Of a stretch of 10,201 nucleotides of DNA, positions 2,670-5,659 are shown piece after piece. The translations under genes and the position numbers were made by a program. The notes beneath the pieces are model-generated. The model was given only the letters and a program-made list of their open reading frames with translations, ran no database searches and was not told the DNA's origin. Source of the stretch: a virus; the UHGV virus genome UHGV-1546769. One strand, 5' to 3'. Numbering within the stretch: position 1 is the first letter of the stretch; every line of letters starts with the position of its first letter.

Positions 2670-2761
2670 TAAGCCCCCACGTAAAAAGCATCCGCAATGT
2701 CTCCGGAAGTACAGCCCGGATGGGCTTCAATGAATTTCTGAACGTCATTTAACAGACTCAT
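2669..2761 (-). CDS. Candidate 30-aa small protein (not in the ORF track)
   Basis: Hand translation of the minus strand gives MSLLNDVQKFIEAHPGCTSGDIADAFYVGA*. Its ATG (2761..2759) lies 2 nt after the O-like stop TGA (2766..2764), and its TAA stop (2671..2669) overlaps the methyltransferase ATG (2669..2667) as TAATG. It fills the only gap between those two genes exactly. Confidence 0.3.
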   Translation of the reverse strand: MSLLNDVQKFIEAHPGCTSGDIADAFYVGA

Positions 2762-2763
2762 GA

Positions 2764-3756
2764 TCACCCCCTGAATCCTGCCGGGATCTGGCTGTAGTCC
2801 ACGTTGTCGTAACTGGCTTTGAAGTACGGGTCTTCACGTTTTTCTGTGTGCGTGCTGACGGACGGCGATAAGCGCAGGGAAAGCTCATCCCATTTTTCCC
2901 GCAACTTCGACGGGCTGAGCACGTTACGGCACCAGAACGGATCGCGGCTGACGCGGCTGTACATCTCGCAGATTTGTTTGTGAGTACGACCATCCTGCAC
3001 ACACATCAGGCGAATTTCGTTTGCCCATGCTGTCCAGTTCGGTTCTTTGGGACGAACCACCTCGCCGTCACATTCGGCGGCCTGCTCGTACAGGGCGATG
3101 ATTTTTTTCCAGAGCCACTGTGCGCAGGTCAAATCATCCTGCGTTCCCCACTGGCGCTTTTTAGGGCTGAATACAACCGCATCAGGATGGCGAGTTAAAA
3201 ACTCCTGTTCAGCCGTTTGCGTGTCCGGTTGCGAAGCGTCCGGACGAGAAGAGGTTTTATTCTCTGTAGTAATCTCTGTTGTATTCTCTGTAAGATCATT
3301 GGGCCATTTTGACCCGATGACAGCGTGTCGTTTTGAACCAATGGATCGTGTCATTTTGCGCCCATCCATCAGGTCACTTTGACCCGATGGAGAGGTGCAT
3401 TTTGACCTGATGGATTCGTTCACTTTGACCTCTTCTAAAAGCTCACTTTCATAGTTGATCGTGTAGAAGTTGGTCATGTCACGCTTCGATTTATTGAGTT
3501 GCTCGCGACGCAAAACCCCAAGTGATTTCAGGCTTGCAAATGTGCGTTTCAGAGTGGACTCTGACCAGAACGGAAACTGCTCCAGCCACTGTTCTGTCGT
3601 GTTATAAACCCAGCGAATTCCGCCATGCTCAGTGCCTGAATTCGTTTCATTCAGCCAGTAATGAAGCTGCTGCAACACAATTGCCTCATTCAGACCAATA
3701 CGGCATGCAAGATCACGATTTATCACAATGGGCTGGGATGTCATTAACAGGCTCAT
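2764..3756 (-). CDS. Replication initiator protein, lambda O-like, with the origin embedded in the gene
   Basis: 330 aa. It sits where O sits in lambdoid phages (after cro and a cII-like gene). The N-terminal region looks like a winged-helix DNA-binding domain, the central Thr/Glu/Asn-rich linker coincides with the iteron array and AT-rich repeats, and a separate C-terminal domain follows, which mirrors lambda O architecture. ATG at 3756..3754 with GAGG 6 nt upstream. Confidence 0.8.
   Translation of the reverse strand: MSLLMTSQPIVINRDLACRIGLNEAIVLQQLHYWLNETNSGTEHGGIRWVYNTTEQWLEQFPFWSESTLKRTFASLKSLGVLRREQLNKSKRDMTNFYTINYESELLEEVKVNESIRSKCTSPSGQSDLMDGRKMTRSIGSKRHAVIGSKWPNDLTENTTEITTENKTSSRPDASQPDTQTAEQEFLTRHPDAVVFSPKKRQWGTQDDLTCAQWLWKKIIALYEQAAECDGEVVRPKEPNWTAWANEIRLMCVQDGRTHKQICEMYSRVSRDPFWCRNVLSPSKLREKWDELSLRLSPSVSTHTEKREDPYFKASYDNVDYSQIPAGFRG
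3255..3300. repeat. AT-rich segment with three ATYCTCTGT repeats next to the iterons (candidate DNA unwinding element)
   Basis: Copies at 3259-3268 (attctctgta), 3272-3280 (atctctgtt) and 3283-3292 (attctctgta) in a locally AT-rich stretch. In the direction of O transcription it lies immediately after the iterons, as the AT-rich region does in lambda ori. Confidence 0.4.
3304..3432. repeat. Replication origin iterons: six direct repeats, consensus about tCAyTTTGACCCGATGG, period about 23 bp
   Basis: Repeats read directly at 3304-3320 (ccattttgacccgatga), 3327-3344 (gtcgttttgaaccaatgg), 3350-3367 (gtcattttgcgcccatcc), 3373-3390 (gtcactttgacccgatgg), 3396-3413 (tgcattttgacctgatgg) and 3419-3432 (ttcactttgacctc). 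They lie inside the O-like coding sequence with regular spacing of about two helical turns. Confidence 0.7.
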
Positions 3757-3925
3757 GACCGACCTCTATTTCCCTGAATTTACGACGAAACTGTTCGAGC
3801 GGACTGAAGCATTCATGTTCATAGCCTTCACGGAGGTAGATAACCCGTTGTGTTTCCGGCTCCCAACGAATGACTCTGACGGGCACTCCGTAGTGATCTT
3901 TGAACCAGCGGTTAACTTGTCGCAA
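3713..3925 (-). CDS. Hypothetical protein in an alternative frame (TTG start), overlapping the ORF at 3766-4104 and the first 14 codons of the O-like gene
   Basis: 70 aa ([70 protein letters not shown]) with globular-looking composition. The start is TTG at 3925..3923, preceded by GAAGGAGA with a 7-nt spacer. It cannot be cleanly reconciled with the overlapping ORF. Confidence 0.3.
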
Positions 3926-4104
3926 AGGACTGTCTCCTTCTGCCGGTTGAAATCACCCACAGCCCACTCTGCAAAGCTGTGGGTTACAATTTCCCTGTCA
4001 CCTGGTACATTCACTGCATAGCAATACTCCACCTTCGCTTTTCCACCCGGTACAGGAAGCGCAATCAGTTGCGAGCGACGGTAGTGTGTTGTTAAACTGT
4101 TCAT
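3766..4104 (-). CDS. Hypothetical protein, translationally coupled to the CII-like gene
   Basis: 112 aa. The ATG at 4104..4102 overlaps the upstream TGA at 4103..4101 (ATGA), with GGAG about 10 nt upstream. The N-terminal half ([28 protein letters not shown]) looks protein-like; the C-terminal half is Ser/Thr/Asn-rich and overlaps the better-looking 70-aa frame. Stop TAG at 3768..3766 lies 10 nt before the O-like start. Confidence 0.45.
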
Positions 4105-4685
4105 GCGTTAGTTTCTCCACAACCAGAAGCAATCGACGCCACGACGCCCGGAGCTGCACACTCGCGGGCGTTACTCTTTTCCGGCGCACAAAAAACACGA
4201 AATAACAGTGTTAAATGCTCCTGCCACTTCGCCATTACTTGGTAGCTGTTCTCTTCGATTTGCTCACGCTCAGCCTGGTCAATAACTCCATCAGCAGTTG
4301 CCTTGCGTAAGTACTGGGAATGCTTGCCAATCCATTCTATTGACTCCATCAGCCGCTGATTAATGTCACCATTGTCAATGTCATCAATGACCACCAGCGG
4401 CACAAACACCCCATTACTACGACGGGCTATTGCATCTGTTACATGCCTGGTACCACTGGCATCCTGTAAAACCATGGCCCACTCAAGTGGAAAAATTTGA
4501 TCCCCACCGCTACGCAGTCTGTTATGCAATTGATCTTTTGCTGGGGTGATATCATCAGATTTATACAAACCAAGAATTTCTGCTGCTTCCTCATAGCCAT
4601 GAGGTAAATCAGCAATCGTTCTTCGTATTGCTGCCACCAGCCATGCTGGTTGTTTATCAACTTTCCATTCAGGTTCTTTACCCAC
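4101..4685 (-). CDS. CII-like regulatory protein (YdaT-like: CII-type N-terminal region with a C-terminal extension)
   Basis: 194 aa, second gene after cro. The segment [42 protein letters not shown] resembles the lambda CII HTH region (AEAVGVDKSQISRWKRDWIPKFSMLLAVLEWG). The start is GTG at 4685..4683 with GAGGA about 8 nt upstream. The last ~25 aa are low complexity. Confidence 0.55.
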
Positions 4686-4712: not shown

Positions 4713-4910
4713 TTATGCCGCAGCACTGTTAGTCTTTTGATATAAAGACACGTCAACTTTCAGTTTCCCGTTAGTAATTTTTTCTAACTGGTACGCTCGG
4801 CCTTCAGGAATAATCTCAGGCCACTCTGAAACAGACGGATGCTTAATACCTAGGGCTTCGGCGGTTTTACAAACTCCGCCGAAATAATTAATCACGTCGG
4901 ATTTCCGCAT
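4713..4910 (-). CDS. Cro-like / YdaS-family HTH regulator
   Basis: 65 aa, divergent from cI across the operator region. The segment GGVCKTAEALGIKHPSVSEWPEIIPEGRAYQLEKITNGKLKV fits the YdaS/Cro-like small HTH pattern. ATG at 4910..4908 with GGGAGA about 6 nt upstream. Confidence 0.75.
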   Translation of the reverse strand: MRKSDVINYFGGVCKTAEALGIKHPSVSEWPEIIPEGRAYQLEKITNGKLKVDVSLYQKTNSAAA

Positions 4911-5005: not shown

Positions 5006-5659
5006 ATGATGAACATGAGTGATCGTATTCGCCAAAGGCGAAAAGAACTGAACCTGACACAACAAGCACTGGCTGATTTGACTGGTGTGAACCGTGTCAC
5101 GGTTACTGGATGGGAAAAGGACGACTACCAACCAAATGGAGCCAACCTTCAAGCCCTAGCCAACGCACTTAAATGCGATCCTCTGTGGCTTGTTAGCGGA
5201 AAAGGCTCGCCTGAACCAAAGATAAATCTAAAACCTGAAATATTCGCAGTTAAAAAAGTCCCCCTCATCTCGTGGGTTCAGGCGGGTTCATGGACAATGA
5301 CGGAGCCTGGTGTCAGGAAAGAAGATGCTGAAGAGTGGGTTTATACTACCGCCCTTGTATCAGAAATGGCATTTGCACTACGGGTCCGTGGTGATTCAAT
5401 GACCAATCCCCTCGGCTCACCATCGATACCAGAAGGTTCTATCGTTATCGTAGAGCCAGATATTATTGATACAGAGTGTATTAACGGAAAAATCGTTGTT
5501 GCCCATATCAATGGTGGGCAAGAAGCGACACTCAAAAAATTTGTTGAGGACTGGCCGAACAGGTATCTCGTCCCACTAAATCCTAACTATAAAACTATTG
5601 AATGCGGTGAGAACTGCAGAATAGTTGGTCTTGTCAAACAAGTAATAATGGATTTTTGA
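5006..5659 (+). CDS. Prophage CI-type repressor (N-terminal XRE-family HTH plus C-terminal S24 LexA-like autopeptidase domain)
   Basis: 217 aa. HTH region RRKELNLTQQALADLTGVNRVTVTGWE; candidate Ala-Gly autocleavage site in SWVQAGSW; S24 catalytic Ser motif VRGDSMTNP and Lys in ATLKKF. Three in-frame ATGs at 5006, 5009 and 5015 with only a weak AGGA upstream, as for leaderless or weakly initiated cI transcripts. Confidence 0.9.
   Translation: MMNMSDRIRQRRKELNLTQQALADLTGVNRVTVTGWEKDDYQPNGANLQALANALKCDPLWLVSGKGSPEPKINLKPEIFAVKKVPLISWVQAGSWTMTEPGVRKEDAEEWVYTTALVSEMAFALRVRGDSMTNPLGSPSIPEGSIVIVEPDIIDTECINGKIVVAHINGGQEATLKKFVEDWPNRYLVPLNPNYKTIECGENCRIVGLVKQVIMDF

Follow-up and report, generated by a model that had tools for sequence, protein, structure and literature searches.

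How might a phage replication initiator obtain a replicative helicase when no helicase loader is encoded with it? This question is raised by the virus genome UHGV-1546769, of which a stretch of 10,201 nucleotides (hereafter the window) was analysed. The gene at 2764-3756 on the minus strand of the window codes for a replication initiator of 330 amino acids and contains a putative origin of replication. The sequence belongs to an Escherichia coli lambdoid prophage of the mEp460 / SfII / e14-like group, of which the window represents the immunity and early region, and the initiator region of the window was found by megablast to be 98% identical to Escherichia virus mEp460_4F5. A first-pass annotation made from the bare sequence had described an O-like gene with an internal origin of the lambda layout, had noted no helicase loader in the operon and had suggested that the initiator's C-terminal domain may recruit the host helicase system by a different route. 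Based on the sequence comparisons reported here we favour, as the probable reading, a lambda-type origin whose solo initiator would recruit the host DnaB-DnaC via a DnaT-type tail.

Six iterons of 23 bp were identified on the minus strand at 3297-3435 using a repeat finder and Tandem Repeats Finder (TRF). The units delimited by the repeat finder were 3297-3319, 3321-3343, 3344-3366, 3367-3389, 3390-3412, and 3413-3435, which corresponds to start-to-start spacings of 24, 23, 23, 23, and 23 bp, and the period determined by TRF was also 23 bp. The autocorrelation at lag 23 over 3297-3435 was 0.58, compared to a maximum of 0.46 over lags 8-44 in 20,000 shuffles, and the array was the strongest periodic signal in the window, with nothing comparable elsewhere. 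The repeat finder, TRF, and the autocorrelation hence agreed with the first-pass annotation on six direct repeats with a period of about 23 bp inside the initiator gene; only the end of the array had to be moved, from 3432 to 3435. The iteron consensus on the coding strand, which was built from the units of the window and of its relative HannyBb, is CATCGGGTCA-AAA-TGACCCGATG, in which AAA is flanked by a perfect inverted repeat of 10 bp. A candidate seventh iteron (3436-3458) was considered and rejected because its core is degenerate and the unit is not kept in HannyBb or ev081. Searching the whole window for the iteron-core motif with two mismatches allowed yielded 10 hits compared to 5.9 expected, which is uninformative, and the evidence for the iterons therefore consists of their clustering and phase and not of the core motif count.

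An A+T-rich block with three 12-bp repeats was identified by the same two programs on the minus strand at 3258-3293 (plus-strand sequences TATTCTCTGTAG, TAATCTCTGTTG, and TATTCTCTGTAA). Along the direction of transcription, i.e., on the minus strand, the iterons come first and the 12-mer block follows, as the first-pass annotation had it. The three repeat units of that annotation were likewise recovered, and its repeat motif, ATYCTCTGT, needed a slight correction, the core shared by the units being WTCTCTGT. The coding strand at 3255-3296 is composed of 52% A and 71% A+T, the corresponding values for the lambda block being 57% and 74%, and the lowest GC content of the gene (32.5%) was found at 3260-3299. 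The 12-bp repeats stand in frame, with TENTTEITTENK as their translation. CGTCCGGACG, a perfect palindrome of 10 bp, is located at 3236-3245, just past the 12-mer block in the direction of transcription. This palindrome recalls one that flanks the A+T-rich region of lambda; about ten palindromes of 10 bp are expected by chance per 10 kb, and CGTCCGGACG alone is therefore not significant. The 12-mer block at 3258-3293 is the presumed DNA-unwinding element (DUE) of the origin; the DUE of lambda, roughly 40 bp long, undergoes nearly full melting during initiation (as cited in PMC12661323).

The iteron array codes for residues 108-154 of the initiator, and the iterons and 12-mers together for residues 108-167. 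This part of the gene coincides with a disordered linker, for which the AlphaFold2 (AF2) model gave a predicted local distance difference test score (pLDDT) below 50 at residues 117-160, between two confidently modelled domains. With a period of 23 bp, which is not a multiple of three, the array cannot stem from a repeated peptide, and what is selected is hence the DNA repeat rather than the protein sequence. The silent sites point in the same direction. The HannyBb initiator is 71% identical to that of the window in amino acid sequence and the two genes are about 78% identical overall, and the identity at third codon positions is 50% in the N-terminal domain and 44% in the C-terminal domain (hereafter N-domain and C-domain), but rises to 85% for the iterons and to 100% for the 12-mer block, where all 42 nucleotides are the same.

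The genomes of SfII and SKA5 encode a near-identical C-domain that is joined to an unrelated N-domain (HTH_36) and accompanied by other iterons with a 15-bp period. The co-variation of N-domain and iterons was examined in 80 viral contigs with a near-identical C-domain, 78 of which fell into three pairings of N-domain and iteron type. Iterons of the window type were present in all 14 contigs with the N-domain of the window type, and iterons of the SfII type (15-bp period) in 63 of the 63 contigs with the SfII-type N-domain. One further contig (L042:5826-6812) encodes a third N-domain together with a third iteron type, consisting of five units with a 23-bp period and a GGGAAACCC core. In L042 the three 12-mers and the C-domain follow this unrelated iteron type exactly as in the window, which indicates a recombination joint between the iterons and the 12-mer block. 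The exchangeable units are accordingly the N-domain with the iterons on the one side and the 12-mers with the C-domain on the other side.

The comparison with related prophages that the first-pass annotation had proposed thus found the repeats to be kept in HannyBb and in 14 contigs. The lambda ori-in-O layout is further borne out by the dyad symmetry of the iterons, the A-rich block downstream of them, their position at the linker, the conservation at the DNA level, and the co-variation with the N-domain. No DnaA boxes (TTWTNCACA) were found near 3255-3435; the sole exact match in the window is at 8026, as predicted by chance. With boxes missing near the origin, a plasmid-like initiation dependent on DnaA boxes was not supported. 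No enrichment of GATC was found. Taken together, the sequence features make us highly confident that the region would act as a functional initiator-dependent origin.

From end to end, the initiator matched PHROG 391 ("replication initiation O-like", E-value 1e-101). No Pfam or NCBIfam family was assigned to it and no Pfam match was obtained even at E-values up to 10, including the N-domain of the Phage_rep_O family (PF04492). Its counterpart in mEp460_4F5, the gene of which is 98% identical, is annotated as "Primosomal protein I". Three parts of the protein were distinguished: an N-terminal winged-helix DNA-binding domain at residues about 1-118 (3403-3756, minus strand; AF2 and Foldseek), a C-terminal helical domain at residues 179-296 (2869-3222, minus strand; homology to the C-domain of lambda O), and a flexible C-terminal tail at residues 297-330 (2767-2868, minus strand), which is predicted to be flexible from its low pLDDT in the AF2 model. 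The N-domain (residues 10-118) was modelled confidently, with a pLDDT of about 90, and has a winged helix-turn-helix topology. Its best matches in Foldseek were weak (E-values 5e-3 to 0.14, template modelling score about 0.55 normalised to the target) and comprised the N-domains of staphylococcal plasmid RepA (4pql, 4pt7, 5kbj) and DnaD (2v79). PHROG families of the "DnaD-like helicase loader" type also matched the initiator, at residues 2-170. The N-domain is the presumed reader of the iterons.

The C-domain is homologous to that of lambda O (33% identity over 148 amino acids, E-value 1e-26, BLASTP) and contains the conserved motifs WG..DL, PNW..WAN.IRLM, and FW..N.LSP.KLR.KW. The family to which it belongs is very large (2689 representatives at an E-value of 1e-3 or better), and in this family the domain is joined to various N-domains (HTH_36, Phage_rep_O (PF04492), DUF1376, DnaD_N, and others). 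The confident model of the C-domain (pLDDT 87) had no significant neighbour among solved structures. The designation of the initiator as O-like is hence appropriate for its C-terminal half but not for its N-terminal half, which is a different winged helix without a Phage_rep_O match.

Helicase loaders were searched for with Pfam and PHROG models and with phmmer, using lambda P, DnaC and DnaB of E. coli, and phage homologues of P and DnaC as queries; these searches would miss loaders of families not yet known. Neither the Pfam and PHROG models, among the sizeable ORFs of the window, nor phmmer, in the window and in the complete mEp460_4F5 genome (42.9 kb), detected a homologue of P, DnaC, or DnaB. 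The same result was obtained with phmmer for the examined parts of SfII, SKA5, HannyBb, and ev081 and for 1.0 Mb of sequence from the 80 related viral contigs, and no loader is listed in the annotated genome of SfII. The statement of the first-pass annotation that no P-, DnaC-, or DnaB-like gene follows in the operon therefore holds for the window and beyond it, and the loader just outside the window that it had allowed for was not found in the complete genome of mEp460_4F5. Its list of downstream genes was also reproduced, namely a 30-amino-acid ORF, a methyltransferase, a LexA-domain protein, and RusA, with a KilA-N protein as the next gene.

Two candidates for a hidden loader were considered. 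The 30-amino-acid ORF at 2672-2764 (minus strand), which directly follows the initiator, is no loader but what a 395-bp deletion has left of the 5' end of a PerC/YfdN-like gene: its matches to PHROGs 23071 and 1324 were confined to their first 26 residues, the deletion relative to mEp460_4F5 is located at 2684, and relatives have an intact PerC/YfdN-like gene of 161-164 amino acids (a Pfam PerC member) after the initiator. The ymfM-like gene upstream of the initiator is an unlikely loader, as HannyBb and ev081 have the same initiator type without this gene. Altogether it appears probable that host DnaB-DnaC is used without a phage loader.

The feature that may replace a loader is the end of the initiator. 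Its last nine residues, SQIPAGFRG (2767-2793), are identical to the end of E. coli DnaT (SQIPPGFRG) at eight of nine positions. The last 20 amino acids of the HannyBb initiator are identical to DnaT at 14 positions (E-value 9e-8) and match positions 160-179 of the NCBIfam DnaT model. Across 16 DnaT proteins no variation was seen at the residues I173, P174, G176, F177, R178, and G179, and outside its folded core DnaT is nowhere more conserved than in the tail. No similarity between the initiator and DnaT was detected beyond the C-terminus with BLASTP and the NCBIfam DnaT model, and neither the N-terminal oligomerisation domain nor the acidic PriB-binding linker of DnaT was found in the initiator. 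The C-domain of DnaT (PF17948, a three-helix bundle that binds single-stranded DNA) had no Pfam match in the initiator. When the C-domain profile was compared using hhalign, the probability was 34% over 85 columns with DnaT alone and 56% with the DnaT profile, the latter over only 43 columns comprising the last helix and the tail. Homology of the entire C-domain to that of DnaT was not supported by these values, and a sequence search of the PDB was empty.

The same tail is present in YdaU of the Rac prophage, which ends with ...SLPDSAIPPGFRG, i.e., ...VNTVSLPDSAIPPGFRG, or ...PDSAIPPGFRG, and is followed by the DnaC-like YdaV; outside the tail YdaU has no significant similarity to the initiator of the window. 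In E. coli dnaT is located directly upstream of dnaC. To determine how widely the tail is distributed, viral contigs were searched for ORFs ending with IPPGFRG-stop. All ORFs found were initiator-like and had at least four types of C-domain: the lambda-O type (31 ORFs), the YdaU/DUF1376 type (13 ORFs), a genuinely DnaT-like C-domain to which DUF1376 or another N-domain is fused (6 ORFs), and "replisome-organiser"-like or Phg_2220_C-like C-domains (30 ORFs). Where downstream sequence was available (69 ORFs), a DnaC homologue follows in 35 cases and P or DnaB in none. Initiator-like proteins combining the DnaT-like C-domain with the IPPGFRG tail occur in the viral contigs L174, L227, L242, L234, and L218, and their C-domain has the pattern GKF...DW.PD.DF...AA.WG...FxxYW.AEGK..HH.QWQQKLARS.Q. 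These fusions hint at a possible origin of DnaT, as of DnaC, in a phage replication module.

Tail type and loader were compared for 80 prophage loci of different species, each with a gene for the C-domain, and loaders were searched for within 7 kb on either side; the ORFs in the retrieved loci were called mechanically. P follows the initiator in all 24 loci with the tail ...HWNSxEAWExxL (WNxxEAW), in all 14 loci with the lambda-type tail ...NTDWIxG, and in all three loci with an Aeromonas-type tail, i.e., in 41 of 41 loci with these three tails, none of which has a DnaC homologue after the initiator. P follows in none of the 18 loci with a DnaT-type tail, three of which have a DnaC homologue (Pfam IstB_IS21), and in none of the 19 loci with a long ...AWxxIWxQ extension, which also lack DnaC. 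Two loci had unclassified tails, with P after one initiator and no loader after the other. A DnaC homologue directly after the initiator was consequently found in 3/18 loci with the DnaT-type tail and in 0/62 other loci. ORFs of 411-445 amino acids that follow some of the initiators with a DnaT-type tail were considered as DnaB-type helicases and rejected, as they matched the ParB-like helix-turn-helix models of Pfam.

The long extension, ...AWxxIWxQxxEQ..., defines a fifth class of O-type initiators with a length of 350-390 amino acids. It was found in prophages of Proteus, Providencia, Morganella, Sodalis, Edwardsiella, and Acerihabitans (loci L112, L114-L123, L125, L134, L140, L143, L148, L153, L154, and L156), and homologues of P, DnaC, and DnaB were not found within 7 kb of these initiators.

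Sister proteins with up to 73% identity in the core of the C-domain differ in their tail and in the presence of P. A neighbour-joining tree built from the core of the C-domain implied four or more switches between the DnaT-type and another tail and six or more gains or losses of P, and the DnaT-type tail occurred without a P gene in every locus of the tree. Among the loci that encode P, mapping the tail class on a tree of the N-terminal third of P required 2 changes, compared to 8 and 10 changes with the remaining thirds of P and to about 14 at random. In the classical view the C-terminal part of O contacts P, and the agreement of the tail class with the N-terminal third of P fits such a contact.

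According to the mechanism that we propose, transcription from the early promoter on the cro side would supply the two-domain initiator, the N-terminal winged helix of which would bind the six abutting 23-bp dyad iterons, probably as dimers. The nucleoprotein complex would then destabilise the neighbouring A-rich block of three 12-bp repeats. Up to strand opening the origin would work as in lambda, and the delivery of the helicase would differ: the tail would dock host DnaB-DnaC onto the opened origin, most probably through DnaC, and the initiator would thereby combine an origin binder and a "DnaT-like" adaptor in one protein. The different route to the host helicase that the first-pass annotation had suspected would thus consist of a C-domain of the lambda-O type with a tail that is of the DnaT type and not associated with P. 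For the tail as the recruiting element we consider the balance to be slightly favourable, and DnaC as its direct partner is proposed tentatively, at somewhat less than an even chance. In the cryo-electron microscopy study of the preprimosome (Nat Commun 2026), how DnaT recruits DnaB/DnaC is stated to be an open question (PMC13377028).

Several points weigh against this proposal. The end of the gene that codes for the tail abuts or overlaps the next gene, and the associations of the tail with loaders and with P could in part reflect linkage in mosaic genomes. Many of the loci are related prophages, such that the counts are not independent and only about four switches are inferred. Furthermore, 15 of the 18 loci with the DnaT-type tail are without a DnaC gene, and the link to DnaC therefore rests on the minority of loci and on the analogies with YdaU-YdaV and DnaT-DnaC. 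The authors of the preprimosome study propose the N-terminal domain of DnaT, and not its tail, for recruitment (PMC13377028). DopC, by its description, shows that DnaT-like C-termini are not strictly exclusive of P (see below). The A+T content of the 12-mer block is moderate (only 71%), and the two small deletions in the PerC-like and dam genes suggest that this copy of the prophage is perhaps starting to decay. Binding by the initiator, unwinding at the 12-mers, replication, and the partner of the tail are all features that we infer from sequence.

The alternative that survives best, though we consider it unlikely, is that the tail recruits the restart primosome (PriA or PriA-PriB), after which DnaB-DnaC would be loaded via PriA-PriB-DnaT. 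This loading pathway is used by phage Mu, phiX174, and ColE1-type plasmids. The high conservation of the tail within DnaT would agree with such a role, and an acidic residue followed by I-P-x-G-F loosely recalls the PriA-binding C-terminal tip of SSB. It is also known that the C-terminal domain of DnaT docks on PriA via a conserved hydrophobic interface, although the extreme tail is not stated to belong to it (PMC13377028), and that certain phages and plasmids depend on restart proteins (PMC5778457). However, PriA is near-universal, and its recruitment would leave unexplained why initiators bearing the tail frequently have DnaC and never P as neighbour; the gene pairs dnaT-dnaC and ydaU-ydaV would likewise remain without explanation.

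Somewhat less likely still is that the tail is irrelevant to loading (possibly a degradation or regulatory tag) and that the folded C-domain contacts DnaB, or that DnaA helps. In iteron plasmids (pSC101, R6K, and P1, for example) a solo Rep initiator recruits host DnaB-DnaC without a loader of its own. The weak resemblance of the N-domain to the N-domains of plasmid RepA_N proteins and DnaD is in line with such a strategy, and iteron-plasmid initiators are listed in PMC6391071. However, DnaA boxes were not found within or near the origin, the same C-domain works with P in sister proteins of up to 73% identity in which the tail switches together with P, and the presence of the tail on at least four unrelated initiator C-domains suggests that the tail itself is functional. 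The docking of the tail on DnaC is favoured over these alternatives because of the missing DnaA boxes and the association with DnaC.

Two further alternatives are very improbable. A loader encoded elsewhere in the phage genome could be envisaged since the prophage is about 40 kb long and the window spans only about 10 kb, but no homologue of P, DnaC, or DnaB was found in the 42.9 kb of mEp460_4F5 or the 1.0 Mb of the 80 contigs, and the SfII annotation has no loader; one of a family not yet known would escape such searches. That the repeats are no origin at all but a low-complexity linker or a by-product of recombination in a prophage that is defective or replicates from elsewhere could draw on the in-frame 12-bp repeats encoding TENTTEITTENK and on the 395-bp and 13-bp deletions in neighbouring genes, but is countered by the out-of-frame 23-bp period, the dyad symmetry of the units and their conserved silent sites, the co-variation of three iteron types with three N-domains, the lack of a comparable periodic signal elsewhere in the window, and the deposition of relatives with the same replication module as phage genomes, several of them with host and isolation source.

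The window can be compared with several known systems. In lambda (O/P) and in the Stx phages 933W and P27, as in the window, the origin lies midway along the initiator gene and consists of dyad iterons with an A-tract and an A-rich block downstream. The iterons of lambda carry an A-tract at their centre and serve as binding sites for O dimers, origins within O with four or six iterons are already textbook knowledge, and the Stx phages have six iterons, as the window does (PMC7466680). The initiator of the window also occupies the same position in the early right operon as in lambda, after cro and cII, and has a homologous C-domain. In contrast to the window, the N-domain of lambda O is Phage_rep_O, the iteron sequence is different, the abutting 23-bp spacing is not shared, and lambda has a P gene and the tail ...LDLTNTDWIYGVDL in place of a DnaT-type tail without P.

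The initiator shares with E. coli DnaT the type of the extreme C-terminal peptide (...PDxxIPxGFRG), and it would by analogy share the proposed role of an adaptor between a DNA-bound complex and DnaB-DnaC; the adjacency of dnaT and dnaC is similar to that of DnaC homologues beside certain initiators bearing the tail. It differs from DnaT by lacking its N-terminal domain and, as judged from the sequence, by acting at a specific duplex origin, whereas DnaT acts at a fork bound by PriA-PriB. The YdaU-YdaV pair of Rac also consists of a prophage initiator-type protein with the same tail in the same place of the operon, after the cro-like ydaS and the cII-like ydaT. However, YdaU is composed of DUF1376 and a different C-domain, and Rac has its own DnaC-like ATPase (YdaV) while the phage of the window has none.

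Single initiators with iterons that use the helicase and loader of the host, as is proposed for the window, are found on iteron plasmids and in the "initiator-only" replication modules of temperate phages that Weigel and Seitz reportedly described in 2006. The RepA_N/DnaD-N fold of iteron-plasmid initiators resembles the N-domain (based on the weak Foldseek matches), and plasmid origins usually have DnaA boxes, unlike the origin of the window.

The closest precedent in the literature is the DopC-DopE pair of Cellvibrionales and Oceanospirillales, in which an O-like protein with a DnaT C-terminal motif is encoded beside a P-like gene, and the parallel between O-P and DnaT-DnaC was drawn in the same study (Brezellec et al., 2017, PMC5509034). 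DopC is similar to the initiator of the window in being a chimera of O and DnaT that was previously tied to helicase handling (PMC5509034). It differs in being chromosomal and domesticated, without iterons, and with a P-like partner, and it is reported to have the DnaT C-domain fold, whereas the initiator of the window keeps the lambda-O C-domain and is DnaT-like only in its tail. In the literature that we searched we found no account of the tail as a separate portable motif, of its association with loaders of the DnaC type to the exclusion of the P type, or of O-type initiators without a loader that use a DnaT-type tail, and nothing on YdaU together with DnaT.

The origin by itself is ordinary lambdoid biology, albeit a clean case of three cassettes of N-domain and iterons on one C-domain. 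What stands out is the acquisition of the helicase, as the phage has no loader and its initiator ends with the invariant peptide of DnaT. Across the classified O-type initiators the kind of tail perfectly predicts the presence of a P gene, and DnaC homologues occur only with the DnaT-type tail. We put forward as a speculative possibility that the terminal peptide ...(D)xxIPxGFRG is a portable docking motif for a DnaC-type loader or for DnaB6-DnaC6. If this was the case, the peptide would supply the link, so far missing, through which E. coli DnaT passes DnaB-DnaC on to the restart primosome, and at least four or five initiator families of phages and prophages that are unrelated to one another (the lambda-O C-domain, YdaU/DUF1376, DnaT-C-domain, "replisome organiser", and Phg_2220_C-like types) would have swapped it among themselves. 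The tail of O-type initiators would then be an interchangeable "plug" that chooses the loader, i.e., P, the phage's own DnaC, or the DnaC of the host. DnaT-DnaC may also descend from a phage initiator-loader pair.

For the recruitment of DnaB-DnaC in the preprimosome the pattern nominates a peptide of 7-20 residues. The tail type could furthermore be used to annotate the replication strategy and the dependence on host factors of lambdoid prophages. The database labels for the same gene are currently inconsistent ("O protein", "primosomal protein I", and "helix-turn-helix protein"), and the second of these, already given by database annotators, is the one attached to the counterpart in mEp460_4F5.

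The gene content of the window was assigned using Pfam and PHROGs. The cI-like repressor gene is located on the plus strand at 5006-5659. On the minus strand the rightward early operon starts with a cro-like gene at 4713-4910 (Pfam P22_Cro, E-value 8e-22) and runs via a cII/YmfL-like gene at 4101-4685 (Pfam Phage_CP76 (CII)) and the ymfM-like gene at 3766-4104 (no family of known function) into the initiator gene. Beyond the 30-amino-acid ORF follow, also on the minus strand, genes for a Dam methyltransferase (1764-2669), a protein with a LexA DNA-binding domain (1706-2032), RusA (1320-1709), and a KilA-N protein (503-1300). A 13-bp deletion at 2073/2074 relative to mEp460_4F5 causes a frameshift near the 3' end of dam, and the dam ORF of the window is extended to 301 amino acids (217 amino acids in relatives) and overlaps the gene of the LexA-type protein. 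In another frame of the minus strand, an ORF of 70 amino acids (3713-3925) overlaps both the last part of the ymfM-like gene and the first part of the initiator gene. This ORF matched PHROG 1343 over its full length (E-value 5e-34) and is possibly a gene that overlaps its neighbours, or else a different annotation used in other phages.

In addition to mEp460_4F5, partial megablast matches to the window were obtained with the Shigella phages SfII and SfIV, the coliphages SKA5, Kati, and PhiR29, and others. Some part of the window is present in 4245 of 5426 complete E. coli genomes, and at least 80% of it in 14 of them. The opposite arm of the window contains yfdQ/yfdR-type genes, a PAPS-reductase-like gene, and a queuine-tRNA-ribosyltransferase-like gene. 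The latter two belong to the leftward operon, the PAPS-reductase-like gene at 8025-8903 and the queuine-tRNA-ribosyltransferase-like (DpdA-type) gene at 9213-10130, about 300 bp apart, with a small ORF at 8900-9373 between them. We presume that this pairing may mark a phage module for 7-deazaguanine DNA modification.

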